This document shows, piece after piece, positions 5,644 through 27,639 of a stretch of DNA of 64,000 bases. Within the stretch, counting starts at the first letter, position 1. Each line of letters starts with the position of its first letter. Origin of the DNA: Candidatus Kerfeldbacteria bacterium (lineage in GTDB: Bacteria > Patescibacteriota > Patescibacteriia > UBA10025 > JAHIVO01); NCBI GenBank assembly GCA_016214565.1, contig JACROE010000002.1, forward strand, positions 344,007 to 408,006, in the 5' to 3' direction. Made by a program: the position numbers and the translations under genes. The notes under the pieces are model-generated. The model was not told where the DNA came from, made no database searches, and was given only the letters and a program-made list of their open reading frames with translations.

Positions 5644-5686
5644 GAGTCTTGACAGGATACCCCCTTTTCACTACCATACACCTACT

Positions 5687-6028
5687 ATGTTAATGATTCG
5701 CTTATCTCGAGTCGGAAAAAAGAAGCACCCCCTGTATCGGGTTATCGTTTCAGAGAAAACCAAGGATACCACGGGCGACTATCTTGAACTGCTCGGAACC
5801 TATAATCCACACACGCGTGAAACCAATCTGAAGGTTGATCGGGTAAAACACTGGCTCTCCCATGGCGCCCAAGCCTCAGGGACTGTTCATAACTTACTGG
5901 TTGATCAAAAATTGGTAACCACGGCAAAAGTCAAAGTGGCAAACATCAAAAAGAAGGCCGCTCCTGAAGGGGAGTCGAAACCTGCCGCAGCGCCAGCCGC
6001 ACCAGCGACTCCGCCTGCAGCTGCCTAA
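5687..6028 (+). CDS. rpsP: 30S ribosomal protein S16 with an Ala/Pro-rich C-terminal tail
   Basis: IRLSRVGKKKHPLYRVIV matches the S16 N-terminus. The alternative start codon at 5693 would give MIRL. The tail is KKKAAPEGESKPAAAPAAPATPPAAA. Confidence 0.85.
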   Translation: MLMIRLSRVGKKKHPLYRVIVSEKTKDTTGDYLELLGTYNPHTRETNLKVDRVKHWLSHGAQASGTVHNLLVDQKLVTTAKVKVANIKKKAAPEGESKPAAAPAAPATPPAAA

Positions 6029-6143
6029 AAGCTAGGCCACTGCATATCCTTCCCCTTGCTCAAATAGAGTTGTTTACACGCATGGAGGGAGTTCACTAAT
6101 ACGCATGTTACTCATGCGGGTATATTTTATTTTAAGATTATAT

Positions 6144-8309
6144 ATGAAAAAAATTAATTTCAGCATTGCCCTGTTTGCCCTCTTGATAGCGCCGCTCCAA
6201 AGCAGCGGCCTCATCGCGCCTGAACTGATCGCAGAGGAAATTGATACGTCAATCCAAATTCAAGAACCGGTTCAAGACCCGGGGATTGTAGCGACATCAG
6301 CATACGCGCATCAGCGACATGAACCCACCTCCACCGCTACTCCGGCACGCTACCTTCAAGAGCGAACACTGCGCTGGCCAACCCTCCGTCTGATTGAGGA
6401 TAGTTTTGTCGCAACAAAGGTGAGCACCACCAATGTCATCCCCACGGTCGGCATGGTTATTACCGACAATACCACCCTCGAACCAGGCACCTATAGTAAT
6501 AATGTGCCCGGTAGCACCTTTATTACCATTGCTGCGGATAATGTGACGCTCGATTGTAATGGTGCCATCCTCGAGGACGTTACACCTAATCATCTGACTG
6601 ACGGTATTAAAATCGCATCAGGCCTCAATAATGTCACCGTGACCAATTGCACGCTAAAAAATATGTTTTTGGGCATTATCTCGGGCAGTAGCGATCCCGA
6701 TGGCCCGATCAGCACTGGTCTGACGATCACCCAAAATACATTTTTACAATACGCCACCGATGTTGAGCTCTACTATCTCAACTACTGGAGCCACCTCATG
6801 ATTAGAAATACCAATAATTCAGAAATCTCCTACAACAGGTCAGAACCGTTTGATGTTAAACGGCACTGGGCCAACGGCATTTTCATGAGCCTCTGGGAAT
6901 CCGACCACAATGATGTGCACCATAACACCAGCGTAAGTATGACCGGCATTCATGTGACGCTGAATTCTGACAGTAATAATATCCATGACAATGAATTTGG
7001 CTTCAGCTACTGGCAGAATGGTGGCATAGAGATTGACCGTGCCAGTGATTCGAATAACATCCACCATAATCAAGCTAGTTACTACAATTATGAGCCAACG
7101 TCGCCAACCCTTGCGGGAAGTGGCATCATGCTACATGGATTCACCGCATCGGACGCTCCACGGTACCAGGAGGCAGCCCATCATAACATTATCACCGACA
7201 ACACCACCGTCAGTAACTATAAAATGATCTCAGCTATTTCTCTGGTGCACGACGCGCATGATAATCTAATCACTCGCAATACCGTGAATGGTGCCTATGT
7301 TGGTATCGAGGCCTATTTTGGCCAAACTGATGCTGGTGGATCACCCACTTATTATTTCCCGCACCACAACACGATCGACGGTAATTCCACTGTCCAATAC
7401 GACCCCAATACCAATACCGAGGGAGTCTGGCTCGGAAACGGAACACATCACTTCACGATCACCAACAACACATACACCGGTGGCTACCATGGTGTACGAG
7501 CCATGTACTTGGTGGGTAGTACGGAAGCGCCACAGGTGCCTATCACTGATATGGTTATCCAAGATAATCGTATGTTAAATATGGTTTCCTTCGGACTATT
7601 CAACCCTAATGAAGATGTGATTGAACGGTGGAATATTTATCATAATTACTTTTCACACAATGGCTCTGATCCGAATCTGATTGATGGTGCCCTCGAGCTC
7701 CAGAGTTCATCTTCAGAAATATTTGCCTACGAGAACACATTTATAGATAATGGACTCAATGGGGAAGGAAATTACGATCAATTATGGAGCTCGCCTCAAA
7801 CCCAACTCCAACGCGAAGGGCGTGGCAATTACTATAGTGACTATGACGAGCCCGGTGAAGGATGCAACGATACTGATCTCAATGGCATCTGTGATCTCCC
7901 GCGAAATTTTTCCACCGGGGCAGTTGATGCCAACCCGCTGGTCAATCCCACCTTCTGCGCCAATAACAATTGCCCACCCGTGTTTAGACCGATCGCGCCA
8001 CTCACCGTCAATGAGCAAGACATGGCGATCATCTGGGTGAATGCGTACGATTACGAACATGATCCGCTCACCATCACCGTAAGCGATAAACGATTCCAAT
8101 CGTATGATGGATGTTGGCCAGGACGCAATGCCTGGGTCTGGTGGACTAATATTGATAGCAGCGGAACGTACCCCGTCACCGTGACCGTCAGCGATGGCGT
8201 CAATCAAGTACAGCAATCAACGGTCGTCACCGTTCGCGATACCTGTTTCAAAGATAAATGGGGGAGGATGCGTTGCTTAAATTATGCGCAACGAGTTTCC
8301 TGTTATTAA
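6144..8309 (+). CDS. Secreted right-handed parallel beta-helix repeat protein (NosD/pectate-lyase-like fold) with a C-terminal cadherin/Ig-like domain
   Basis: A signal-peptide-like start MKKINFSIALFALLIAPLQS at the internal ATG at 6144. Many repeats of the type NNxIxxNxxxG / ITxNT / HHN typical of beta-helix proteins. A C-terminal VTVSDG segment. Confidence 0.6.
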   Translation: MKKINFSIALFALLIAPLQSSGLIAPELIAEEIDTSIQIQEPVQDPGIVATSAYAHQRHEPTSTATPARYLQERTLRWPTLRLIEDSFVATKVSTTNVIPTVGMVITDNTTLEPGTYSNNVPGSTFITIAADNVTLDCNGAILEDVTPNHLTDGIKIASGLNNVTVTNCTLKNMFLGIISGSSDPDGPISTGLTITQNTFLQYATDVELYYLNYWSHLMIRNTNNSEISYNRSEPFDVKRHWANGIFMSLWESDHNDVHHNTSVSMTGIHVTLNSDSNNIHDNEFGFSYWQNGGIEIDRASDSNNIHHNQASYYNYEPTSPTLAGSGIMLHGFTASDAPRYQEAAHHNIITDNTTVSNYKMISAISLVHDAHDNLITRNTVNGAYVGIEAYFGQTDAGGSPTYYFPHHNTIDGNSTVQYDPNTNTEGVWLGNGTHHFTITNNTYTGGYHGVRAMYLVGSTEAPQVPITDMVIQDNRMLNMVSFGLFNPNEDVIERWNIYHNYFSHNGSDPNLIDGALELQSSSSEIFAYENTFIDNGLNGEGNYDQLWSSPQTQLQREGRGNYYSDYDEPGEGCNDTDLNGICDLPRNFSTGAVDANPLVNPTFCANNNCPPVFRPIAPLTVNEQDMAIIWVNAYDYEHDPLTITVSDKRFQSYDGCWPGRNAWVWWTNIDSSGTYPVTVTVSDGVNQVQQSTVVTVRDTCFKDKWGRMRCLNYAQRVSCY

Positions 8310-8429
8310 CTCATTGCTTGACACCCTCCCGGCGGCATTGATATCCTACTGGTACGCCAGCGCTGTGTTGGTCGACGCACCTGGTCATGCACTTTACACG
8401 ATTAATCAGTAACTAACGAATCGACGAAC

Positions 8430-8783
8430 ATGGCTGCAGAAAAAGACCAAGAGTTTGTCGAGTACGTGGTCAAAGCCCTCGTTGACCGTCCGGAAGATGT
8501 TTCATCTGACCGAACCGTCGACGAGATGGGCGTGTTAATCACTCTCAAAGTGAACCCCCAGGACCTCGGCCAAGTAATTGGTCGCCAGGGCCAAACGGCA
8601 AAAGCGGTACGCACCTTGCTCCGCGTTGTCGGCGCCAAGAACCACGCACGCGTCAACTTAAAGATTCATGAACCCGAAGGTTACCGCAAAGGCAACCGGG
8701 GCGGTTCACGAGACGAAGGATCGCGAACATCGGGTCCACAAGAAGAAGCTGATACTTCAGCTGTCGATGACCTCAAAATATAA
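8430..8783 (+). CDS. KH-domain RNA-binding protein (KhpA/YlqC family)
   Basis: VKALVDRPEDV...LKV...DLGQVIGRQGQTAKAVRTLL is the KH GxxG motif (GRQG). Its position between rpsP and trmD is canonical. Confidence 0.75.
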   Translation: MAAEKDQEFVEYVVKALVDRPEDVSSDRTVDEMGVLITLKVNPQDLGQVIGRQGQTAKAVRTLLRVVGAKNHARVNLKIHEPEGYRKGNRGGSRDEGSRTSGPQEEADTSAVDDLKI

Positions 8784-8856
8784 GATTTGACTTATCAAGT
8801 CACCAACAAACCGTTCCGGTATACCCGTGACGGTTTTTGGTTTATACTACCTTCAT

Positions 8857-9513
8857 ATGTACCGATTCGACTTACTCACCATCTTCCCTGACATTTTTGA
8901 CTCGTATCTCGGGGCAAGCATCCTCAAACGCGCCCAATCAAAAAAACTGATCGAGGTGCACGTCCATGATATTCGGAAATTCGCCACTGACAAGCACCAC
9001 ACGACCGACGATCGCCCCTACGGTGGCGGCCCGGGCATGGTGATGAAGGTGGAGCCGATCTTCCGCTGTCTAAAATCTATCAGACGCAAAAGAAAGTCAC
9101 GCATTATTCTGCTGTCGGCAAAAGGAAAGACGTTTGATCAAGCCGCGGCGAAGAACTATGCAAAAAAATACGACCAGCTCATTCTCATCGCGGGGCATTA
9201 TGAAGGCGTCGATGAACGAATCATGAAATACGTGGACGAAGAAGTGTCCATTGGTAATTATATACTCACCGGTGGGGAGCTGCCGAGCTTGAATATTGTC
9301 GACGCTGTATCACGGCTATTGCCCGGCGTCCTGGGGGATGACACCTCATCGCACGACGAATCATTTAGCTCACCCAACTACCGAGAATACCCCCACTACA
9401 CACGCCCCGAAGTCTTCCGTGGTGCACGCGTCCCGCGAGAGCTCCGCTCGGGTAACCACCGAGTCATCGAGGAGTGGCGAAAACGCCATCAAACGTCAAA
9501 ACGTTCGTCTTGA
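8857..9513 (+). CDS. trmD: tRNA (guanine37-N1)-methyltransferase
   Basis: MYRFDLLTIFPDIFDSYL...DDRPYGGGPGMVM...LIAGHYEGVDER matches TrmD. The internal ATG at 8857 fits the usual TrmD N-terminus; the ORF-track start at 8827 adds 10 aa. Confidence 0.85.
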   Translation: MYRFDLLTIFPDIFDSYLGASILKRAQSKKLIEVHVHDIRKFATDKHHTTDDRPYGGGPGMVMKVEPIFRCLKSIRRKRKSRIILLSAKGKTFDQAAAKNYAKKYDQLILIAGHYEGVDERIMKYVDEEVSIGNYILTGGELPSLNIVDAVSRLLPGVLGDDTSSHDESFSSPNYREYPHYTRPEVFRGARVPRELRSGNHRVIEEWRKRHQTSKRSS

Positions 9514-9541
9514 CCTAGTTAGAATCTGATTTCTAACGGGG

Positions 9542-9570
9542 TTGACACTCCGCTACAAATCCTCTACAAT
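9542..9570 (+). promoter_or_regulatory. Near-consensus sigma70 promoter, TTGACA-N17-TACAAT, in the 16S leader region
   Basis: ttgaca at 9542-9547, a 17-nt spacer, then tacaat at 9565-9570, about 420 nt upstream of the 16S 5' end. Confidence 0.5.
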
Positions 9571-9985
9571 AATCCACACCACGATTGGGTGGCAAATATT
9601 TCGCTAAGTTGACATAAAAAACGAAAGGAAATGGCCTAGCGAGCATAATCATTACGAAAACTTCAAGATTTCTTCGTGATATTGTGCATCCTGAGCTACT
9701 CGGGATTTTTTATTTAAACTCTGATGCGAACTATGCCGTGGAGTGCACCTGCGTTCAAGCCAGGATGTCCTCAACAAAGCACGGCGCGCCATCACCATCG
9801 ATTTGGAGTCCGTTGACAACTGAAAAGTGGTAAGAATATTACCAGATTCCACGGTTATTATCACGCGCGAAGAGCGCTGGTAAGGAATCACAACCTGTTT
9901 TGATCACTTCAGGTTAAGAAAAAGTGACATAAGTAATATAGAGCTATTTCATCCGGCAAGGCCGGATGAAACGAATTCTCTTTTT

Positions 9986-11470
<1,485 letters not shown>

Positions 11471-17741: not shown

Positions 17742-19889
17742 ATGTTTACCAAGATACGTAAGCGGGATGGACGCGTCGTCGCCTTTGATCCCGAGCGAAT
17801 TGTGAACGCCATAACCAAAGCAGGCCAAGTAACTGGCGAATTCGACCGCGAGGTAGCGAAACATCTCACCTTACGCGTCTTAAGCGTGGCTGATCAAGTC
17901 ATCAACGGTGATGGCATCCCATCGGTTGAACAGATTCAGGACATTGTTGAAGAAACACTACTCTCCTCAATGTACAAAAAAACAGCCAAAGCCTATATCA
18001 TCTACCGAGAGCAACATTCTAAAATGCGCGAAATTGCCGACACCGCCCACGTCAATCTGGTTGACCAATACCTAGATGAACTCGACTGGCAGGTGAATGA
18101 GAATAGTAACATGTCCTTCTCCTTACAGGGACTCAATAATTACATCTCGTCGGAAATTAGCAAAATTTATTGGCTGAACAAAATTTACCCCAAAGAAGTG
18201 CGTGATGCGCATACCAGTGGCGATTTTCACATGCATGATTTGAATATTTTATCGGTTTATTGTGTCGGCTGGGATCTCTACGACCTGATGAGCCAGGGTT
18301 TCCGTGGTGTCGCCGGAAAAATTGAAAGCAAAGCACCAAAGCATCTTCGTTCTGCCATGGGGCAAGTCGTAAATTTCTTCTACACCCTGCAGGGTGAAGC
18401 AGCTGGCGCTCAAGCGTTTTCAAATTTCGATACCTTACTCGCCCCGTTCATCCGCTATGACAAGCTGACCTATAAGGAAGTAAAGCAAGTCATTCAGGAA
18501 TTCCTTTTCAATATCAATGTCCCAACCCGCGTCGGCTTCCAAACACCTTTCACCAATATCACTCTGGACTTCACCGTACCCTCGACCTTTGCGGAGCAAC
18601 CAGTGATCATTGGCGGGGTACCGCAGAAAGAGCAATACAAAGATTTCCAAAAAGAAATGGACATCTTCAATAAAGCGCTGCTCGAAGTTATGCTCGAGGG
18701 TGACGCCAAAGGCCGCGTCTTCACCTTCCCCATCCCGACCTACAATATCACTAAAGACTTTGACTGGGAGAGCCCGATTGCCGATCTGCTCTGGAAAATT
18801 TCCGGCAAGTACGGCATTCCCTATTTCTCCAACTTCATCAATTCAGACATGAGCCCAGAGGACGCTCGCTCCATGTGCTGCCGCTTGCGCCTCGATAATC
18901 GCCAACTGGAAAAACGCGGCGGCGGACTCTTTGGTGCGCACCCCCTCACCGGTTCAATTGGTGTCGTCACGATAAATCTGCCGCGCCTGGGCTTCACCTC
19001 GCGGAATGAAGAAGAATTCATCACCAACCTTGAGCGGTTGATGGATATTGCCAAGAACAGCCTAGAAATCAAGCGAAAAATCCTCGAACGCTTCACGGAA
19101 AAAGGCCTCTACCCGTATACCAAATACTACCTGCGCCACATGCGTGAACGATTTAATGAATACTGGAAAAACCACTTCTCTACCATCGGCCTCGTCGGCA
19201 TGAACGAAGCGGCGGTCAATCTGTTGGGCAAAGATATCGGCACCGAAGAAGGGCACGCTTTTGCCGAACGAATTCTCTCCTTCATGCGCGACCGATTGGT
19301 TTCCTACCAGAAAGAAACGGGAAACAACTACAACCTTGAGGCTACCCCAGCCGAAGGCACCTCCTACCGATTGGCGAAAAAGGATAAAGAAAAATATCCA
19401 ACCATCATCGCGGCGAATGAGGCAGACTATCAGAATAACGCCGAACCATTCTATACCAATTCGACTCATTTACCAGTCAATTACACACACGACATGTTTG
19501 AGGTGCTCGACCTGCAGGACTCACTGCAAACCAAATACACCGGCGGTACCGTCATCCACCTCTTCCTGGGCGAACAAATCACTGATGGAAATGCCGTGAA
19601 ATCAATGGTGAAGAAAATCTGCGAAACCTATCGACTACCCTATTTTACCTTTACCCCTACCTTCAGCGTCTGTCCCACCCATGGATACTTAAGTGGTGAA
19701 CATCCTACCTGCCCTTCCTGCACCGCTCAATGTGAAGTGTACTCCCGTGTGGTTGGCTATCTCCGACCAGTTCAACAGTGGAACAAAGGCAAGAAAGAGG
19801 AGTTTAAGAACCGAACTATGATCCAGCCAGCGGTAGCGCCGCAAGTAAAAACCCCAACGGCTAAAGTACCGGTGACGGCCAACAGTTAA
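17742..19889 (+). CDS. nrdD: Anaerobic (class III) ribonucleoside-triphosphate reductase
   Basis: N-terminal ATP-cone (IRKRDGRVVAFDPERIVNAI). C-terminal zinc ribbon CPTHG...CPSC and glycyl-radical motif RVVGY. Confidence 0.85.
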   Translation: MFTKIRKRDGRVVAFDPERIVNAITKAGQVTGEFDREVAKHLTLRVLSVADQVINGDGIPSVEQIQDIVEETLLSSMYKKTAKAYIIYREQHSKMREIADTAHVNLVDQYLDELDWQVNENSNMSFSLQGLNNYISSEISKIYWLNKIYPKEVRDAHTSGDFHMHDLNILSVYCVGWDLYDLMSQGFRGVAGKIESKAPKHLRSAMGQVVNFFYTLQGEAAGAQAFSNFDTLLAPFIRYDKLTYKEVKQVIQEFLFNINVPTRVGFQTPFTNITLDFTVPSTFAEQPVIIGGVPQKEQYKDFQKEMDIFNKALLEVMLEGDAKGRVFTFPIPTYNITKDFDWESPIADLLWKISGKYGIPYFSNFINSDMSPEDARSMCCRLRLDNRQLEKRGGGLFGAHPLTGSIGVVTINLPRLGFTSRNEEEFITNLERLMDIAKNSLEIKRKILERFTEKGLYPYTKYYLRHMRERFNEYWKNHFSTIGLVGMNEAAVNLLGKDIGTEEGHAFAERILSFMRDRLVSYQKETGNNYNLEATPAEGTSYRLAKKDKEKYPTIIAANEADYQNNAEPFYTNSTHLPVNYTHDMFEVLDLQDSLQTKYTGGTVIHLFLGEQITDGNAVKSMVKKICETYRLPYFTFTPTFSVCPTHGYLSGEHPTCPSCTAQCEVYSRVVGYLRPVQQWNKGKKEEFKNRTMIQPAVAPQVKTPTAKVPVTANS

Positions 19890-19902
19890 TCGTCCGACTG
19901 CC

Positions 19903-20592
19903 ATGCGCATCGGCGGACTCCAAAAATTTTCGATGATTGATTACCCCGGTTTGGTGAGCGCGATTGTGTTCACCACCGGGTGTAATTTTCGTTGCGGATA
20001 TTGTCACAATCCTGAACTAGTAAAACCAGAGTATTTTCTCCCGCCCATCCCCGTGGAAGATATTTTAGAATTTCTTCGGGCACGTCAGGGCAAACTGGAG
20101 GCCGTGGTTATAACCGGTGGCGAGCCAACTGTTCATCCCGACTTACCGCAATTCATTGGCGCCATCAAAGCGCTGGGATACAAAATCAAGCTGGACTCCC
20201 AGGGCACCAACCCCGCCATGCTCGACTCACTCATTCAGGATCGATTGATTGACTATATAGCCATGGATATTAAGGGTCCCCTTAATCGATATGCAGAAAT
20301 TACCAATATGCCGGTTAATCCGGCTGATATCCAAGAAAGTATCCGCTTGATTATGGCGTCAGGGTTGCCCTATGAATTCCGCACCACCATTGTCCGCGAA
20401 CAGCTTGGTACCGCAGACTTTCGATCAATGGCTCAGCTTATCCGCGGAGCAGAAAAATATTACTTACAAAAATTTATCCCAACTAAGGCTAACGACAGCT
20501 CATTTTTAAACAAGCACCCGTATACCGACGATGAATTACGGGAAATTATGAAAATATTCTCTCAGACCGTCGAGACCGTGGGTATCCGGTAG
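19903..20592 (+). CDS. nrdG: Anaerobic ribonucleotide reductase activating protein (radical SAM)
   Basis: CNFRCGYCHN is the CxxxCxxC radical-SAM cluster motif. The gene lies directly downstream of nrdD. Confidence 0.8.
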   Translation: MRIGGLQKFSMIDYPGLVSAIVFTTGCNFRCGYCHNPELVKPEYFLPPIPVEDILEFLRARQGKLEAVVITGGEPTVHPDLPQFIGAIKALGYKIKLDSQGTNPAMLDSLIQDRLIDYIAMDIKGPLNRYAEITNMPVNPADIQESIRLIMASGLPYEFRTTIVREQLGTADFRSMAQLIRGAEKYYLQKFIPTKANDSSFLNKHPYTDDELREIMKIFSQTVETVGIR

Positions 20593-20793: not shown

Positions 20794-21300
20794 ATGTTTT
20801 CTAGACAATTCGTGAGTCACAGAAAAACAAAACTCATAATCTCTGCCGTTTCATTCGTCGTCCTTTGGCAATTCTCATTTCCCCAGTCAGTCATTGCTGA
20901 AAGTGCCCTCGTCGAACAGATTACTTTTGCCCCAGTGCCTGCCGCGATCGAGGTGCAATCTCCAAATCTGCATCGGCTCCCGGAAAACCCTGACATACCC
21001 CGCCCAGAAGCTAAACGAACCATGCAAATCACGGTGACGGCTTATTCTTCAACGGTTGACCAAACTGACGGTGATCCATTTACCACTGCCTCAGGTACCC
21101 AGGTTCGAGACGGTATTATTGCCGCTAACTTCCTGCCAATTGGCTCAAAAGTCCGATTTCCTGAATATTTTGGAGATAAAATATTTGTAGTCGAGGATCG
21201 CATGTCTGCCCGGTATTGGCATACTGCAGATATCTGGATGCCAACCCGCGAAGCCGCTATCCAATGGGGCGTCCGGTACATCACGGTTGAAATCCTATAA
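20794..21300 (+). CDS. 3D-domain (MltA-like) cell-wall protein with an N-terminal signal anchor
   Basis: TAYSSTVDQTDGDPFTTASG...GIIAAN...IGSKVRFPEYFGDKIFVVEDRM...ADIWMP is the 3D domain (TAY..TDG.P..TASG). Confidence 0.7.
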   Translation: MFSRQFVSHRKTKLIISAVSFVVLWQFSFPQSVIAESALVEQITFAPVPAAIEVQSPNLHRLPENPDIPRPEAKRTMQITVTAYSSTVDQTDGDPFTTASGTQVRDGIIAANFLPIGSKVRFPEYFGDKIFVVEDRMSARYWHTADIWMPTREAAIQWGVRYITVEIL

Positions 21301-21538: not shown

Positions 21539-21613
21539 GGCCACGTAGCCAAGTGGTAAGGCGACGGTCTGCAAAACCGTTATTCAGGGGTTCGATTCCC
21601 CTCGTGGCCTCCA
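21539..21613 (+). tRNA. tRNA-Cys (anticodon GCA), CCA encoded
   Basis: Acceptor ggccacg/cgtggcc, anticodon arm acggt-ctGCAaa-accgt, T arm agggg-ttcgatt-cccct. Confidence 0.85.
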
Positions 21614-21750: not shown

Positions 21751-21827
21751 GCGGCAGTAGTTCAGTTGGCTAGAACGTCTCCTTGCCAAGGAGAAGGTCG
21801 CCGGTTCGAATCCGGTCTGCCGCTCCA
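21751..21827 (+). tRNA. tRNA-Gly (anticodon GCC), CCA encoded
   Basis: Acceptor gcggcag/ctgccgc, D arm gttc-agttggcta-gaac, anticodon arm tctcc-ttGCCaa-ggaga, T arm gccgg-ttcgaat-ccggt. Confidence 0.9.
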
Positions 21828-21837
21828 TCCCATCATC

Positions 21838-22296
21838 ATGCATCATCGTGATATCGTCGTGGTTCTCTATAATATCCGCAGCCGGTTCAATGTAGGCGCG
21901 CTTTTTCGCACTGCTGACGCCGCTGGCGTGAAGCGCATGATCCTGTGCGGCATCACGCCACAACCACCGCACCCGAAGATTGATAAGGTAGCGCTGGGCG
22001 CGGAAAAAACGGTGCCTTTTACCTACTATCGACAAACGAAACGAGCGCTTGATGATCTCCACAAACAAGGGTACCAACTCATTGCTCTCGAACAGTCAGC
22101 CGAGAGTATCCACTACACGAAACTGAAATACCCAAAACGCTGCGCGCTCCTGATTGGTAATGAGGTATCAGGATTACCCTACCGATTGCTCAAACAGTGC
22201 GATCACATCATCGAAATACCCATGCATGGCCGGAAAGAATCCCTGAATGTTGGCATAGCCACGGGTATTATCCTCTTTGACAGTATTCGTAAATAA
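21838..22296 (+). CDS. SpoU/TrmH-family RNA 2'-O-methyltransferase (SPOUT)
   Basis: LIGNEVSGLP...IPMHG..ESLNVGIATGIILF are the C-terminal SPOUT motifs. The start was trimmed to the ATG at 21838; the longer ORF-track start reads through tRNA-Gly. Confidence 0.7.
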   Translation: MHHRDIVVVLYNIRSRFNVGALFRTADAAGVKRMILCGITPQPPHPKIDKVALGAEKTVPFTYYRQTKRALDDLHKQGYQLIALEQSAESIHYTKLKYPKRCALLIGNEVSGLPYRLLKQCDHIIEIPMHGRKESLNVGIATGIILFDSIRK

Positions 22297-22302
22297 CAAC
22301 AT

Positions 22303-22389
22303 GCCGCCGTGGTGAAATTGGTATACACGAGGGACTTAAAATCCCTTGGGGGCAACCCCGTGTCGGTTCAAGTCCGACCGGCGGCACCA
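22303..22389 (+). tRNA. tRNA-Leu (anticodon TAA), long variable arm, CCA encoded
   Basis: Acceptor gccgccg/cggcggc, anticodon arm aggga-ctTAAaa-tccct, variable stem gggg-caa-cccc, T arm gtcgg-ttcaagt-ccgac. Confidence 0.85.
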
Positions 22390-22402: not shown

Positions 22403-23359
22403 ATGTCCACCGTATCTCGTGAACTCCGTTCGACGAACGGAAAACCAAACCTTGTCTATTGTTCCGGCAAAGGAACGCTCGGGTCATATCCTTTCAATCA
22501 TCCCCAATACCGTGAATCAATCACGGACTTTATGCGTTTGGCGGAAAAAAAATTTGCCGTCTTCCTTGTCCGCGGTGCTGACAAACATATAGGCAATGGC
22601 GTCTTTACCGACGGTTATCGCGTCACCAGAGGAACGTTCAAACGATTCAATAAAAAAATTTACGCTCGGGTGGTATTTAATAAAGCACCACTCAAAAGTA
22701 ATGGTGGGCGAGATTGGTCAATTCTTAATCAATGGCAGCTTATACAGATTACAGATAATAAATGGCGCACCTACCAACTGCTCAAAAAATTCATGAAGCC
22801 CACCTTCCGTACGACTGATAAGAAATCATTCGCTGCTGCGCTCAAAAAAATAAAAGGGGAGCGCGTCGTGTATAAACCAATCCATGGCAGTGAAGGAAAG
22901 GGAATTGTAATCGGATCAAAAACTGTCGTTGCTAAAAAACTGCGCCGCTACGACGGCCTAATACAGGAATACATAGATACGAGCAGTGGCGTCCCCGGAG
23001 TCTGCCGCGAACGACATGATATGCGGGTCCTGCTGATGAATGGTACAATAGTGCAGTCATACGTGCGCATCCCGCGTCCTGACTCGCACCTGGCAAATAT
23101 TGCTCAGGGTGGCCGCATGCTCGAGATTCCATACTCAGCCATCCCGCCGGCTGCAAAAAAAATAGTGAAGCAGATTGATCGATTATTTCGCCATATTTCT
23201 CCACGCATGTACGCTGTTGACTTCGGATTTGAACAAGGAAGACCTTATATTTTTGAACTCAACCCTCGCGCCGGCTTCCCCTACAAAGCCTGGAAGCGAT
23301 ATTATCACCACTGGCACCAGAGTTTACTGAAAACTCTCTGGAGCGCCCTAACGCACTAG
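22403..23359 (+). CDS. ATP-grasp ligase (RimK/alpha-L-glutamate-ligase-like)
   Basis: VYKPIHGSEGKGIVIG...DMRVLLMNGTIV...YIFELNPRAGF shows the ATP-grasp signature (glycine-rich loop, E-x-N magnesium site). Start trimmed to the ATG at 22403, past tRNA-Leu. Confidence 0.65.
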   Translation: MSTVSRELRSTNGKPNLVYCSGKGTLGSYPFNHPQYRESITDFMRLAEKKFAVFLVRGADKHIGNGVFTDGYRVTRGTFKRFNKKIYARVVFNKAPLKSNGGRDWSILNQWQLIQITDNKWRTYQLLKKFMKPTFRTTDKKSFAAALKKIKGERVVYKPIHGSEGKGIVIGSKTVVAKKLRRYDGLIQEYIDTSSGVPGVCRERHDMRVLLMNGTIVQSYVRIPRPDSHLANIAQGGRMLEIPYSAIPPAAKKIVKQIDRLFRHISPRMYAVDFGFEQGRPYIFELNPRAGFPYKAWKRYYHHWHQSLLKTLWSALTH

Positions 23360-23363
23360 CCGT

Positions 23364-24917
23364 ATGCAATCTAAAATAGGAGCCTATCTCGGTCTGTCTA
23401 TCCTCCTCATGAGTTTATGCAATCCGGTTTTCGCTCAAAGCGAGGAGATCACCCCGATAGAACAAACGCCGCTCACCGCTGAATCAGTCATCGCTGGCAC
23501 CCTGACGCCGCGCATAATCACTGAAGATTTTATTGAATTTGGGAAAAAAACACTATTTGACGCCACTGATTCGATACTCAATCCGGATGCGGGAGTGGCC
23601 ACCTATCGCTGGGATTTTTCTGACAGCACCATTGCTCAGTTCGGTCCAGAAATTTTATATCAATTTTCCGGCACGGGCATCCACCGCGTTGCACTCACCA
23701 TCACCCAGGCAGACCAATCAGTTACCATAGAAAAAGAAGTCTTCGTATACGACACTCGCATGCTCATGATTGCCGACCGGGAAATCGTGCAGAACCTCGA
23801 TGCGATCGTTAAACAAGCGGCTAATAATGGCGTGCTGCTCAAGGTGTTATCATCCACTGAAGCAGAAACTGGTTTTTTAACTGAAGAAAAGCTTATCCCC
23901 TTGATTGCCCAAGAGGCTGATTTTATCACTACCGCGGACGTACTCATTTTTTATACGAATGGCAGTGTCGGCCTGCAATCATTTACCCGCTATTGGCAAA
24001 ATTTGGTTCCGGAGAAAAAAATCAACCTCGAATCAAAGTTGGTCGTTTCAATCACCGACCAAAATATGGCGATTGCGGCAGAATTAACCCAGCAATCATT
24101 CCGCGTTATCGCCCCTCGCTTCATCTTGCTCACCCGTAAAGAATCTCTCAATCCAATTTTTGAGACTGATGAGGACGCCGAACTCGTCCCCAATCTCGAG
24201 AGTCGAGCGATTGAATACCGTATCGTCGATTCACGCAGCGAAAAATCAAATTTCTTTTTCCTGTCGCACGCAATTTCGACATTTATTGCCAAGGGTATTC
24301 CGACGAATACCATCTATTTGATTTTAGCCGTACCATTTATTGCGTTCATCATCACTTTTGCTCGACAAGTGATAGGCATAACTGCCTTCGGCCTGTATAC
24401 GCCACTGGTCATCGCCCTGGCACTACTGATTCTCGGACTCTGGGTCGGTTTAGGCACAGTGTTGGTGGTCGTGGCGATCAGCTATCTGCTCCGACTCGCG
24501 CTCAGCCGATTTCGGCTTCTGTACATACCCAAAACAAGTCTAATCCTATCAGCCATTGGCCTATCCTTCCTCGCCGTCATCTGGATCGTATCATTGTATG
24601 AATTATCACTGGCAGCTACCCTCGCCATTTTCCCCATGCTCGTCATGTCTACCATTTCAGAAAAATTTTTGTCAGCTCAATCAGAAGAAGGTCTCGGGAG
24701 CGCTCTTTCAGGCGTGGTTACAACGATTGTCGTGTCTACCGTCGCCTACTACGTCGTCGTCTGGGACACCTTCACCAATCTCATCATGTCCTGGCCTGAA
24801 TTAATTTTGGTACCGCTCCTGGGCACCATTATCCTAGGAAAATTCACGGGCCTTCGATGGACTGAGTATGTTCGATTCCGTTCTCTCCTCAAAGAAAAAA
24901 CAATCGAAGAAGAATAA
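23364..24917 (+). CDS. Membrane protein: signal peptide, a ~300-aa extracytoplasmic domain, and about 7 transmembrane helices at the C-terminus
   Basis: N-terminal MQSKIGAYLGLSILLMSLCNPVFA. The C-terminal 230 aa are a series of hydrophobic helices. It sits between two ATP-grasp genes, consistent with the '7TM plus inactive transglutaminase-like' partner of RimK-related ligases described in comparative-genomics work. Confidence 0.55.
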   Translation: MQSKIGAYLGLSILLMSLCNPVFAQSEEITPIEQTPLTAESVIAGTLTPRIITEDFIEFGKKTLFDATDSILNPDAGVATYRWDFSDSTIAQFGPEILYQFSGTGIHRVALTITQADQSVTIEKEVFVYDTRMLMIADREIVQNLDAIVKQAANNGVLLKVLSSTEAETGFLTEEKLIPLIAQEADFITTADVLIFYTNGSVGLQSFTRYWQNLVPEKKINLESKLVVSITDQNMAIAAELTQQSFRVIAPRFILLTRKESLNPIFETDEDAELVPNLESRAIEYRIVDSRSEKSNFFFLSHAISTFIAKGIPTNTIYLILAVPFIAFIITFARQVIGITAFGLYTPLVIALALLILGLWVGLGTVLVVVAISYLLRLALSRFRLLYIPKTSLILSAIGLSFLAVIWIVSLYELSLAATLAIFPMLVMSTISEKFLSAQSEEGLGSALSGVVTTIVVSTVAYYVVVWDTFTNLIMSWPELILVPLLGTIILGKFTGLRWTEYVRFRSLLKEKTIEEE

Positions 24918-24926
24918 CCGGCGCCT

Positions 24927-27263
24927 ATGTCATTCATGTCCACTGCCGGAGGTATCCTCGGCATCAATGCTCGCAATCTGCTCTACGTCTCTCGGTTTAA
25001 TTCAAAAAAGAACCGGCGCTTAGCGGATGACAAACTGTTTACCAAGCGCTTCTTGCAAGCGCGGGGAATTGGCGTGGCAAAATTATATGCACAGATAACT
25101 AATACTGCCGGCTTGCGCGCCTTCAATCCTGCAGTACTGCCAAAACGATTTGTAATAAAGCCAAACAAAGGGTACGGCGGCGAGGGAATTATCGCGATCC
25201 AGGATACCAAATCCGGAAAATATATCGATGCCAGCGGCACCGGCTACAGCTGGGCGGAATTAACCGAGCACTGCTTGTCCATCCTCGATGGCCGCTATGC
25301 AATTTCTGGACTGGGGGACACGGTTCTATTTGAAGAACTACTGGAACCGCATGAATACTTCCGGGGTATTGCTGCGACGGGCTTACCAGACATCCGTATT
25401 ATTGTTTTCAAATATGTACCCGTCATCGCTATGCTCCGACTTCCTACAGCCGCTTCAAATGGCAAAGCAAATCTGCATTTAGGAGCTATCGGTGTCGGCA
25501 TCGACCTCGGTACCGGCCGAGGCACGTTTGGCGTCCGTGGACGTAACCTCGTGCGAAAACTGCCCAATGGCGAACCGATTCGATCTATTCTCGTGCCACA
25601 GTGGCACGACATTTTGCTCACCGCCTCCCAAACCCAATACCATACCCAAATCGGCTATTTAGCTGCTGATGTCGCCCTGACCACCCATGGGGTAAAAATT
25701 TTGGAACTCAATGCCCGGGCGGGACTGGCTATTCAAATCTCGAATCAAGCATTACTACGGAAACGTCTGGAGAAAGTCAGCGACCTGAAAGTAACATCGC
25801 CCAGCGAGGGTGTGAGATTGGGGCAAACATTATTTACCAAAATTCTGGCTGACAAAAAACAAACCAGCGCACCAAAAACAACCCCAAAGCCAATCATCGG
25901 TTTATTTGAAGCCGTCAATATATTAAACGTTCCTGGCGTGACGCAGCTCAAAGCAAAAATCGACCCCCATAGCGAACATACCATCATTTCTGACTCGCTG
26001 CCCCTTCCTGAATCAACCAAGCTGCTCGGCATAACCATACGGGATAAAAAGCTGCGGCTGCCGGTCGAGCGCGGCACGCTTCCCCCAGGAGATTACCAGA
26101 TTATTATTGCCGGAAAATACTTATCTGACTTTTTAATTGACTCAAGTGCCAAACGGACGGACAAAACAACTCCTACCAGCACCGCACCAACAGCCGAAAA
26201 AATTATTAAAAATATTGATCAACGTTTAGCCAGCTTAAGCGAATCTCTACATGTTTTAGCTCGCCTCAAACCGCAGAATCTTTCTGAAGCGCGTGAAGCA
26301 TTTCAAGTATCGCCGCATACTTCTCCCCAATTTATCTATTCCACGCCTACCGCTCTCATCCAGAGCACGCGGGTTGAACTACGTAAACTTCCACGCCGCG
26401 TCGACCATCCACTGATGCCGCTCTTTCTAGAAAAAATTGAAGAAATTGAACGTAAATTAAAATTAATCGAAGGAGTGGGCCAAGCCAACCTCACCGAACG
26501 TTCACAGTCGGTCTACGGTGCGGTAACTGAACGGCACTACCGCGATGCGCTGCGACTCATCAAACAGACGCCACACGTAGACGACACCAGCAAAATATTA
26601 CGAATCGAAGAGGTGATCCGCCGTATGGAACGCTATATGGAAGAAAAGAAGCTGTCTCGTTGGAAAATTAAAGTGATTGAGCAGGCCACTGCCGGCATGC
26701 AAGTGACCAGACAGAATACAATTTTAGTGGACAAAAAAGCCCGCATCTCAGAAAATCGTTATCGGGCGTTGGTGGCCCATGAAATCGAAACGCATATTTT
26801 TAGGATGGAAAACGGCCGCCTGCAAAAATTCCGCCTGTTTGAGCACGGTACCGCAGGATATTTGAGCATTGAAGAAGGTTTAGCTATTTACAATCAAAAT
26901 AGGCTGCACCTTAACCTGGGCGATAAATTTTTCTCCCCAGCGCTCAACGTGATCGCCATTTACCTCGGCATGCAATTATCATTCGCTGACCTCTACCACC
27001 AACTCACCGACATCTACGGTCTCGATGCTGATCGTGCCTGGCGTACCTGTGTCCGGGTCAAACGTGGCATGACGGACACGAGCCAACCAGGCGCCTTCAC
27101 CAAAGATAGTATGTATTTTGTCGGGAATCAGCAGATTGAATCATATGTCGCTACGCACGGCGCCGAAGCGCTCAAAAAATTATACGTCGGGAAAATAAAA
27201 ATCAGCGACACGGAATATATCACTGACTTCCGCAGTTGGCCAATCAAATATTTCCCTGAGTAG
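24927..27263 (+). CDS. Fusion protein: N-terminal ATP-grasp (alpha-L-glutamate ligase-related) plus C-terminal DUF1704/QEGLA-motif HExxH metallopeptidase-like domain (MATCAP-like)
   Basis: N-terminal GILGINARNLLYVSRFN...LADDKLFTKRFL...VIKPNKGYGGEGI...LHLGAIGVGIDLGTG is ATP-grasp. The C-terminal half has ALVAHEIETHIF (HExxH) and SIEEGLAIYNQ (QEGLA-type motif). Confidence 0.7.
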   Translation: MSFMSTAGGILGINARNLLYVSRFNSKKNRRLADDKLFTKRFLQARGIGVAKLYAQITNTAGLRAFNPAVLPKRFVIKPNKGYGGEGIIAIQDTKSGKYIDASGTGYSWAELTEHCLSILDGRYAISGLGDTVLFEELLEPHEYFRGIAATGLPDIRIIVFKYVPVIAMLRLPTAASNGKANLHLGAIGVGIDLGTGRGTFGVRGRNLVRKLPNGEPIRSILVPQWHDILLTASQTQYHTQIGYLAADVALTTHGVKILELNARAGLAIQISNQALLRKRLEKVSDLKVTSPSEGVRLGQTLFTKILADKKQTSAPKTTPKPIIGLFEAVNILNVPGVTQLKAKIDPHSEHTIISDSLPLPESTKLLGITIRDKKLRLPVERGTLPPGDYQIIIAGKYLSDFLIDSSAKRTDKTTPTSTAPTAEKIIKNIDQRLASLSESLHVLARLKPQNLSEAREAFQVSPHTSPQFIYSTPTALIQSTRVELRKLPRRVDHPLMPLFLEKIEEIERKLKLIEGVGQANLTERSQSVYGAVTERHYRDALRLIKQTPHVDDTSKILRIEEVIRRMERYMEEKKLSRWKIKVIEQATAGMQVTRQNTILVDKKARISENRYRALVAHEIETHIFRMENGRLQKFRLFEHGTAGYLSIEEGLAIYNQNRLHLNLGDKFFSPALNVIAIYLGMQLSFADLYHQLTDIYGLDADRAWRTCVRVKRGMTDTSQPGAFTKDSMYFVGNQQIESYVATHGAEALKKLYVGKIKISDTEYITDFRSWPIKYFPE

Positions 27264-27639
27264 GGTAGCGATAGGCTCGAGCGATCCGGATATCTCGTCG
27301 AATACGCGCTAGCAATGCCGCCTCCCGTTGATACCAGTACAGCGGACGAATTTTTTTATACACGATGAAGGAAATTCGCTGGCCATAGAGCACTCGATTC
27401 GGATGATTGAGAATATACAATTCTGTTTTACCTCGTTTTTGAATACGCTTGCCGGGCACGCCAAAAACAGCCAGCGCCCGATACGAGCGTCCGCGTAAGA
27501 CCGTGCGGGCAACATACACCCCCGCAGTTAACCCGGTTCCCCGTAAGACGGAACCAGAAAAATTTGCCGTGGGGTAGCCTTGGCGCTCTCCAATTTGTTC
27601 ACCGCGAATGACCATGCCCTGAACTACAACCGGCTTCAT
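27244..27639 (-). CDS. Riboflavin kinase (stand-alone RFK domain)
   Basis: VVQGMVIRGEQIGERQGYPTANF...AGVYVA matches the RibF C-terminal kinase domain pattern. Confidence 0.7.
   Translation of the reverse strand: MKPVVVQGMVIRGEQIGERQGYPTANFSGSVLRGTGLTAGVYVARTVLRGRSYRALAVFGVPGKRIQKRGKTELYILNHPNRVLYGQRISFIVYKKIRPLYWYQREAALLARIRRDIRIARAYRYPTQGNI

Follow-up and report, generated by a model that had tools for sequence, protein, structure and literature searches.

A window of 64 kb from the genome of a Candidatus Kerfeldbacteria bacterium (Patescibacteria/Candidate Phyla Radiation, CPR), the whole stretch of DNA analysed here, contains a gene for a seven-transmembrane (7TM) protein (gene 2) followed directly by one for a fusion enzyme (gene 3), in which an ATP-grasp ligase and a MATCAP-type metallocarboxypeptidase domain are joined in a single chain. 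Together they make up a membrane module of two genes with a wide distribution among the Patescibacteria, to which an optional extra ligase (gene 1) is added in this genome. The architecture of the module is solid with respect to its gene order, domains, folds, active sites, conservation as a pair, topology and the glutamate that terminates the 7TM protein. By analogy with known tail-modifying enzymes, we propose that the gene 3 fusion extends, probably by glutamylation, and also trims the cytoplasmic tail of gene 2, its candidate substrate, and we regard the case for this proposal as evenly balanced. Its more specific form, in which one polypeptide in Patescibacteria would be both writer and eraser of a reversible polyglutamylation (or single-residue capping) on the -EE tail of its partner, is more tentative, standing somewhat short of an even balance. 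The CPR variant nevertheless brings with it an explicit and directly testable substrate candidate, namely the invariant acidic (-EE) end of the 7TM partner.

A conserved pair of membrane protein and fusion enzyme

Gene 1 (positions 22403-23359, 318 residues), gene 2 (23364-24917, 517 residues) and gene 3 (24927-27263, 778 residues, without a signal peptide) all lie on the plus strand, as do their features described below, with 4 nt (ccgt) between the first two and 9 nt (ccggcgcct) between the last two; the coordinates of the open reading frames (ORFs) bear out the close same-strand spacing reported in the original prediction, which had been made from the sequence of the window. That prediction had treated the three genes as a cassette, of which the gene 2/gene 3 pair is conserved and gene 1 is accessory only. 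A scan of GTDB (one genome per species) yielded 295 related stretches, and the locus counts given here rest on the best 80 of them, nearly all of which encode full-length fusions, two being interrupted by a contig end. In 73 of the 80 reference loci the fusion is immediately preceded by the 7TM gene in the same orientation, which places the arrangement far beyond chance, and clustering of all neighbouring ORFs returned no other recurrent partner save gene 1-type ligases (18 of 81 loci). The conserved core is a pair of genes, 7TM and fusion. The product of gene 3 in the window is 100% identical to a protein annotated in a metagenome-assembled genome of Candidatus Kerfeldbacteria, which places the organism among the Patescibacteria/CPR. 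The host genomes of the best 80 stretches are of Patescibacteria type, including Kerfeld-, Magasanik-, Uhr-, Parcu-, Gracili- and Peregrinibacteria/Peribacteria, and at least 120 full-length fusion homologues (765-801 residues, down to 43% identity) are present among 583 database matches. Existing database names for the two proteins extend only to 'DUF1704 / tyrosine-phenylalanine carboxypeptidase domain-containing protein' and '7TM domain-containing protein'.

The C-terminal sequence of gene 2 is ...GLRWTEYVRFRSLLKEKTIEEE, with ...TIEEE as the last residues, and the terminal Glu-Glu-Glu (24906-24914; GAA GAA GAA, then TAA) is the candidate acceptor site, the peptide RSLLKEKTIEEE being a candidate substrate for the gene 3 enzyme. 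Every one of the 120 database homologues (down to 37% identity), and likewise each of the 74 7TM partners taken from the loci, has Glu as its final residue. The terminal run among the 120 homologues is E in 22, EE in 78, EEE in 12 and EEEE in 8; at position -2, 82% have Glu and the remainder mostly Gln, while positions -3 and -4 are free to vary. As a background, 4.6% of 502 other ORFs of the same loci end in E and 0.2% in EE, and gene 2 is the only EE-terminated ORF within the window. An acidic tail as a general feature of RloB, the related proteobacterial membrane protein, was considered and rejected, since in its classical form (inactive transglutaminase plus 7TM) RloB has a terminal Glu in just 1 of 120 sequences.

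A secreted domain attached to about seven transmembrane helices had been predicted for gene 2, and this description is upheld by a signal peptide, a PKD domain and a Pfam 7TM_transglut match (1.2e-28, residues 315-508); the NCBIfam RloB model covers the C-terminal half of the protein only. The signal peptide (residues 1-24, MQSKIGAYLGLSILLMSLCNPVFA, 23364-23435) was read from the sequence, with a helix at residues 2-17 in the model and a putative cleavage site, and is followed by an extracellular PKD beta-sandwich (residues 57-126, 23532-23741), an extracellular alpha/beta domain of flavodoxin-like type (residues 131-290, 23754-24233), a seven-transmembrane bundle delimited by Pfam, model helices and hydropathy (residues 314-494, 24303-24845) and a cytoplasmic juxtamembrane helix and tail (TGLRWTEYVRFRSLLKEKTIEEE, residues 495-517, 24846-24914). 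An AlphaFold model (mean predicted local distance difference test score, pLDDT, 85.7) shows the same succession from N- to C-terminus, from signal helix through PKD sandwich, flavodoxin-like ectodomain and seven membrane helices to a juxtamembrane helix (residues 499-511), after which the C-terminal tip is of low confidence. No transglutaminase core is present in the model, and the ectodomain is on this ground not supported as a diverged transglutaminase.

Hydropathy and the positive-inside rule indicate an N-out/C-in topology: because the N-terminus is extracellular, the helices number seven and positive charge is found in loop 381-386 and in the tail, the C-terminus of gene 2 is predicted to be cytoplasmic. 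Given this topology, the disordered tip and a gene 3 product devoid of a signal peptide, tail and enzyme would share one compartment, so that gene 2 is predicted to present a free C-terminal Glu-Glu in the compartment of the ligase, as in a pairing of the RimK-S6 type. The gene 2 family has a conserved juxtamembrane motif, G-L-R-L-x-E-Y-x-R-F-R, and only 8-12 residues extend beyond its [RK]F[RK] element.

Gene 3 begins with an RloC-like ATP-grasp ligase domain (residues 8-303, 24948-25835), which matches Pfam ATPgrasp_ST at 6.3e-55 (186.8 bits versus a cut-off of 31.4) and TIGR02291 at 1.5e-72 (244.3 bits versus a cut-off of 314.2) and is 39-40% identical to RloC proteins of Aeromonas and Legionella. 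The catalytic set of ATP-grasp enzymes consists of an ATP-binding Lys together with Mg-binding Asp, Glu and Asn residues, and to this set K78, D248, E260, N262 and R264 are assigned. These residues and E136 are conserved in 78 of the 78 sequences tallied, in which position 137 is variable (E, Q, A, S or L). Searches with phmmer of this domain and of gene 1 against PDB sequences gave no matches.

The C-terminal part of gene 3 is a MATCAP/DUF1704 metallocarboxypeptidase domain (residues 431-767, 26217-27227), which matches the corresponding Pfam family (PF08014) at 2e-37 (129.5 bits versus a cut-off of 27, residues 464-767) and the QEGLA family TIGR02421 at 1.8e-40 but with 139.4 bits, below the equivalog cut-off of 338.65, a score by which the domain is a homologue rather than an equivalog of that family. 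The families expected in the original prediction (TIGR02291, TIGR02421/DUF1704 and 7TM_transglut) were in this way all matched, both TIGR scores lying under their cut-offs. When a profile of 20 gene 3 homologues was compared with all PDB sequences, human MATCAP was the sole match (E 2e-21), and in the alignment HEIETH (26778-26795) pairs with the HEIGTH of MATCAP and EEGLA (26871-26885), the motif of the putative third metal ligand ('EEG'/QEGLA), with its TEEGLA. Both peptides quoted in the prediction, HEIETH and SIEEGLAIYNQ, are present in gene 3. The metal motif, however, had been misread as HExxH: HEIETH is an HExxxH motif, which corresponds column for column to MATCAP's own HEIGTH...TEEGLA and is the unusual form described for the MATCAP/TMCP family, in which HExxxH binds the metal and provides the catalytic Glu and EEG is a putative third ligand (PMC10499314). 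HExxxH and [EQ]-E-G are invariant in 79 of 79 homologues. An AlphaFold model of residues 305-778 (mean pLDDT 92.5) has the MATCAP three-dimensional fold in the C-terminal domain.

The view of gene 3 as a protein of two halves requires amendment, since the ATP-grasp and MATCAP domains are confirmed but a third domain between them had been overlooked. This inter-domain region (residues 320-408, 25884-26150) is conserved, with the consensus GLxE...AKIDPH...GKxLxDFLID, and adopts in the model a retropepsin fold (clan AA) of the RimB/RloA type (DUF785/PF05618). The window's own gene 3 sequence has no Pfam match here; 4 of 29 aligned members match the retropepsin-clan families Asp_protease_2 and gag-asp_proteas at approximately 3e-4. 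At the position of the catalytic D-T/S-G the window's protein reads DPH (25962-25970), a degenerate form, for which certain homologues of Peregrinibacteria and Gracilibacteria type have DTG or DSG. Of 79 homologues, 41 carry DPH and 9 carry D[ST]G, the others having further degenerate forms. Because HExxxH/[EQ]EG is invariant and the retropepsin triplet has mostly decayed, the metallopeptidase is the constant hydrolase of the family, and the retropepsin domain is for the most part a relic, plausibly kept for dimerisation or for binding of an acidic tail. Through this domain the module is linked with both RimK/RimB and RloABC.

The accessory ligase, variant loci and flanking genes

The original prediction of a RimK-like ATP-grasp for gene 1 agrees with its Pfam matches to ATP-grasp_3 (6.6e-10) and RimK (2.7e-8), the latter passing with 34.1 bits against a cut-off of 21. 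The score against the RimK family TIGR00768 (51.1 bits) does not reach the cut-off of 143.4, and the best NCBIfam matches, the alpha-L-glutamate ligases MptN and RimK, are far under their cut-offs; by these profile scores gene 1 is an ATP-grasp enzyme of the RimK-like superfamily and not a RimK orthologue. K158, D273, E285 and N287 are the invariant ATP-grasp residues of its family (n = 23). A recent origin of gene 1 by duplication of the gene 3 ligase domain was considered and rejected, since the two show no significant similarity. Gene 1-type ligases form a small family (687 cluster representatives among 1.84 billion in a representative-library search) and occur in three arrangements: on the same strand and upstream, as in the window; divergently, in one or two copies, in loci of Magasanikbacteria type; and, in a single case, downstream. 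With this patchy distribution gene 1 is an accessory outside the conserved core. Two family members, P0364 (648 residues) and P0368 (640 residues), have about double the normal length with two matched stretches each, and look like tandem-duplicated or fused ligases.

Among the variants of the core, a Buchananbacteria locus has as its partner a 7TM-only protein of 269 residues, and five Peribacteria-type loci (L057, L063, L064, L069 and L076) have the fusion right after leuD, with leuA near and no adjacent 7TM gene; the retropepsin triplet of this subclade is DPT or DAT. In locus L089 (Logan SRR22388311 contig, positions 5001-10520) a 7TM gene (tail ...KDLGE) is separated from the fusion by two genes, the first for an amidohydrolase of the FGase family, which also accompanies the stand-alone QEGLA proteins of Proteobacteria, and the second for a RimK/R2K-like ligase that is not related to gene 1. 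The fusion of locus L090 (positions 6692-9017) is split into two ORFs of 171 and 595 residues, probably by a frameshift or an assembly error, and an unusually long gene for ribosomal protein S6 (195 residues, positions 1391-1978) is found approximately 3 kb upstream of that cassette. Many contigs that bear the module (e.g. L006, L009, L013 and L016) were deposited as 'uncultured Gammaproteobacteria bacterium' (TPA_asm metagenome-assembled genomes) and one is labelled Nitrospirota; the neighbouring genes and closest homologues suggest that the gammaproteobacterial label is implausible and wrong.

Related domain combinations are found beyond the Patescibacteria. An unannotated ORF of 584 residues adjoining transposase genes on a plasmid of Halobacterium sp. 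DL1 (CP007061.1; L085, positions 5164-6918) joins a 7TM_transglut module via its tail to an RloC-like ATP-grasp and has no ectodomain, and to judge from its domains it is an archaeal plasmid-borne single-chain form of RloB plus RloC. On alpha- and beta-proteobacterial replicons (L087, positions 4436-8207; L088, positions 4448-8210) a conserved operon encodes an N-formylglutamate amidohydrolase (FGase), a QEGLA/MATCAP protein of 632 residues, the N-terminal ~275 of which have no Pfam match, and a GshB-like ATP-grasp, and in Vibrio (L086, positions 5113-7104) a single protein of 663 residues combines the FGase and MATCAP domains. The NCBI name of the QEGLA protein is 'flavohemoglobin expression-modulating'. 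These FGase/QEGLA/GshB-like operons, which lack a membrane partner, show the pairing of ATP-grasp and MATCAP domains to be ancient and recurrent, though not in every case tied to a membrane.

In the window itself, a tRNA-Leu(taa) gene (22303-22389) ends 13 nt upstream of the gene 1 ATG. A longer gene 1 ORF with a TTG start at 22346 is spurious because that start falls within the tRNA-Leu gene, and the ATG at 22403 was for this reason taken as the start. Further tRNA genes, for tRNA-Cys and tRNA-Gly, are located shortly upstream (21539-21613 and 21751-21827), and an ORF that is SpoU/TrmH-like by sequence (21766-22296) begins within tRNA-Gly, so that its true start must be further downstream. 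ORF translations point to an anaerobic ribonucleotide reductase (715 residues) with a radical-SAM activase (229 residues) at 17742-20592 and to a secreted 3D-domain-like protein at 20794-21300. At its 3' end gene 3 overlaps by 20 nt (27244-27263) with a convergent flavokinase-like gene on the minus strand (27244-27639), and no terminator-like site was found at the overlap. Promoter and terminator scans gave no signal exceeding shuffled expectation.

Proposed tail cycle and rival explanations

In the cycle that we propose, gene 3 would be a cytoplasmic enzyme that docks at the membrane face bearing the gene 2 tail, where its RloC-like ATP-grasp domain would use ATP to lengthen the tail at the alpha-carboxylate, adding most likely alpha-linked glutamates and less likely a single capping residue, and where its MATCAP-type HExxxH/EEG domain would take the added residues off again. 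The retropepsin-fold domain may descend from a polyglutamate protease of the RimB/RloA type that lost its DTG in most lineages and would probably serve as a dimerisation or acidic-tail-binding module, and gene 1, as a second RimK-like ligase, would assist in starting or elongating the added chain or in adding a different residue. Overall, the length and charge of the 7TM tail would be set reversibly, in dependence on ATP and amino acids. By analogy, the physiological output would probably be envelope or osmotic homeostasis; the module is among the few multi-domain systems conserved in the reduced genomes of Patescibacteria, which suggests that it probably matters for envelope or host-associated physiology.

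This reading is consistent with the invariance of both catalytic centres in the 79 homologues, in which the retropepsin motif is mostly lost, and with the restriction of the Glu terminus to the CPR family (120 of 120), as compared with classical RloB, which is accompanied by a secreted retropepsin and no MATCAP domain (1 of 120). The Halobacterium fusion of 7TM tail and ligase is an independent indication that the ligase works at the tail-side face of the 7TM protein, and it argues for a direct contact of the two there. Also relevant, by analogy, is that the RimK, RloA and MATCAP-type enzyme families each act on Glu-rich protein C-termini. The reversible C-terminal tagging at the membrane that was originally predicted is retained in its outline, with an antagonistic ligase and MATCAP-like carboxypeptidase and a conserved cytoplasmic -EE as its candidate components, but the conserved unit, the metal motif and the domain count have been amended.

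Several points weigh against tail modification. Across the family, the support for ligation and trimming of the tail comes from sequences and models; the sequence does not tell for which amino acid either domain is specific; and a ligase and a peptidase on one chain could sustain a futile cycle unless regulated. In addition, a terminal Glu is missing from 119 of the 120 proteobacterial RloB proteins, and in the Halobacterium fusion the 7TM C-terminus is not free, so that the ligase in those systems must act elsewhere, and the same may hold here. The stand-alone bacterial QEGLA proteins, which are found with GshB-like ligases and FGase and without a membrane partner, fit small-peptide metabolism, and the five Peribacteria-type loci have a fusion without an adjacent 7TM gene.

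The observations on RloB, the Halobacterium fusion and the QEGLA operons also favour a serious rival, albeit one that we consider rather unlikely, according to which the enzyme both makes and turns over a product that is free, for instance poly-alpha-glutamate or another short peptide, and the 7TM protein only anchors, regulates or exports it, as may hold for RloBC/RloA in Proteobacteria; the -EE end would in that case act in docking, as a primer or as a mimic of the product, and not as a substrate. It also draws on the reports that RimK synthesises free poly-alpha-glutamate and that RloA is periplasmic and cleaves polyglutamate of at least 8 residues (PMC12239564), and on locus L089, in which the FGase and the further ligase suggest a stepwise peptide chemistry. 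However, it leaves unexplained why all 120 homologues should terminate in Glu, in the MATCAP-linked family only and at the level of the amino acid; the peptidase is predicted to be cytoplasmic and is fused to the ligase, and an exported product would therefore be out of its reach; and there are no recognised transporter motifs in the 7TM family and no energy-coupling partner in the locus.

A distinctly less probable alternative is that the acidic C-terminus on which the fusion acts belongs to another protein, for example a cytosolic or ribosomal one, with the 7TM protein merely recruiting or regulating it, as could be surmised from the five loci in which the fusion has no neighbouring 7TM gene and from RimK, the S6 substrate of which is encoded elsewhere in the genome. 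The tight linkage of 7TM gene and fusion in 73 of the 80 loci speaks against this, as do the standing of gene 2 as the sole EE-ending ORF of the window and the failure of a second recurring candidate to appear in the neighbourhoods. Still lower is the credence that we give to amidation of an envelope glycan or lipid carboxylate by the ATP-grasp domain, with the MATCAP domain as an unrelated amidase. The name of the Pfam family ('sugar-transfer associated ATP-grasp'), the envelope phenotypes of rlo mutants, the altered vesicle production of a Shewanella inactive-transglutaminase (RloB-type) mutant and the presence, in one locus (L002), of a putative glycosyl hydrolase (DUF4015) immediately downstream of the fusion point in that direction, but glycosyltransferase or polysaccharide genes do not recur near the module, and for each of the three domains, catalytic or formerly so, the nearest characterised relatives work on the C-termini of peptides. 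Finally, although the gene 2 stop is only 9 nt from the gene 3 start and the sequence is purine-rich, it is scarcely credible, and was rejected, that the terminal GAA/GAG codons are a ribosome-binding or translational-coupling signal for gene 3 unrelated to the protein tail, because EE is kept in 12 of 12 loci with a gap of 69-1708 nt before the downstream gene (one with an intervening gene) and GAA and GAG alternate synonymously at both terminal Glu positions.

Relation to known ligase and peptidase systems

By sequence homology the module belongs, as a variant, to the Rlo-type ligase/7TM/peptidase systems. The published neighbourhood of this type, rloABC of Pseudomonas aeruginosa (ligase/7TM/retropepsin), encodes a secreted retropepsin, RloA, a membrane protein with an inactive transglutaminase and a 7TM domain, RloB, and an ATP-grasp enzyme, RloC (mBio 2025, PMC12239564); deletion of rloB or rloC suppresses the lethality of RloA protease loss (PMC12239564). 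In both systems a 7TM protein of family PF14402 adjoins an ATP-grasp of family PF14397 (TIGR02291-like, approximately 40% identity), a domain of RimB/RloA fold is present, and the 7TM proteins have the juxtamembrane motif G-x-[RK]-L-x-E-x-x-[RK]-F in common. In contrast to RloABC, however, the retropepsin domain of the CPR module is cytoplasmic by prediction, is fused behind the ligase and mostly lacks DTG, there being no separate, secreted and intact retropepsin; a MATCAP metallocarboxypeptidase is present in addition; the ectodomain is composed of PKD and flavodoxin-like domains, whereas that of RloB is an inactive transglutaminase (PF14400); and the 7TM tail has the -EE end that classical RloB lacks.

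Compared with the proteobacterial QEGLA (TIGR02421) operons, in which a DUF1704/MATCAP domain likewise adjoins an ATP-grasp ligase, the CPR module differs in that their ligase is GshB-like and encoded as a separate gene, that they have no 7TM partner, and that they include an FGase amidohydrolase, either separate (alpha- and beta-proteobacteria) or fused to QEGLA (Vibrio). The literature searched contained no report that links MATCAP/DUF1704 with ATP-grasp enzymes or describes the gene 3 architecture, and none that establishes a function for bacterial MATCAP homologues. The original prediction took a ligase/7TM/QEGLA neighbourhood to be already noted in comparative genomics; the neighbourhoods that could be compared were ligase/7TM/retropepsin (rloABC) in the literature and, in annotated proteobacterial records, FGase/QEGLA/GshB-like ligase with no 7TM gene.

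By analogy, the module parallels both the action of RimK and RimB on ribosomal protein S6 (...EE) and the opposition of TTL/TTLL and MATCAP on tubulin (...EE(Y)). The S6 protein of E. coli ends in ...EE. In the bacterial case an ATP-grasp alpha-L-glutamate ligase, RimK, extends the C-terminus of S6 (RpsF) with Glu, which a retropepsin-like peptidase, RimB, takes off (PMC12239564). The difference lies in the candidate substrate, which here is a membrane protein of the same operon, in the active peptidase, which is a metalloenzyme by its motifs and not an aspartic protease, and in the ligases, neither of which attains the RimK family cut-off. Should the proposed cycle be correct, the 7TM tail would join RpsF and SdeA as a third type of bacterial protein substrate that undergoes polyglutamylation.

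In the tubulin cycle, the enzymes that oppose TTL/TTLL are MATCAP (KIAA0895L/TMCP1) and TMCP2, which trim ...EEY tails in dependence on the penultimate Glu and can act on polyglutamate chains too, which they shorten (PMC10499314). The gene 3 domain is only 25% identical to MATCAP, its accompanying ligase is of the RloC/RimK branch, ligase and peptidase form one polypeptide, and the candidate substrate is not cytoskeletal. Despite these differences, a fusion of ligase and MATCAP domain that faces an ...EE tail suggests that the ancestral task of the MATCAP family may have been the trimming of acidic C-terminal tails, and the module, if it works as proposed, would be a prokaryotic counterpart of the TTL(L)/MATCAP code of tubulin tails and possibly, on the eraser side, its evolutionary relative.

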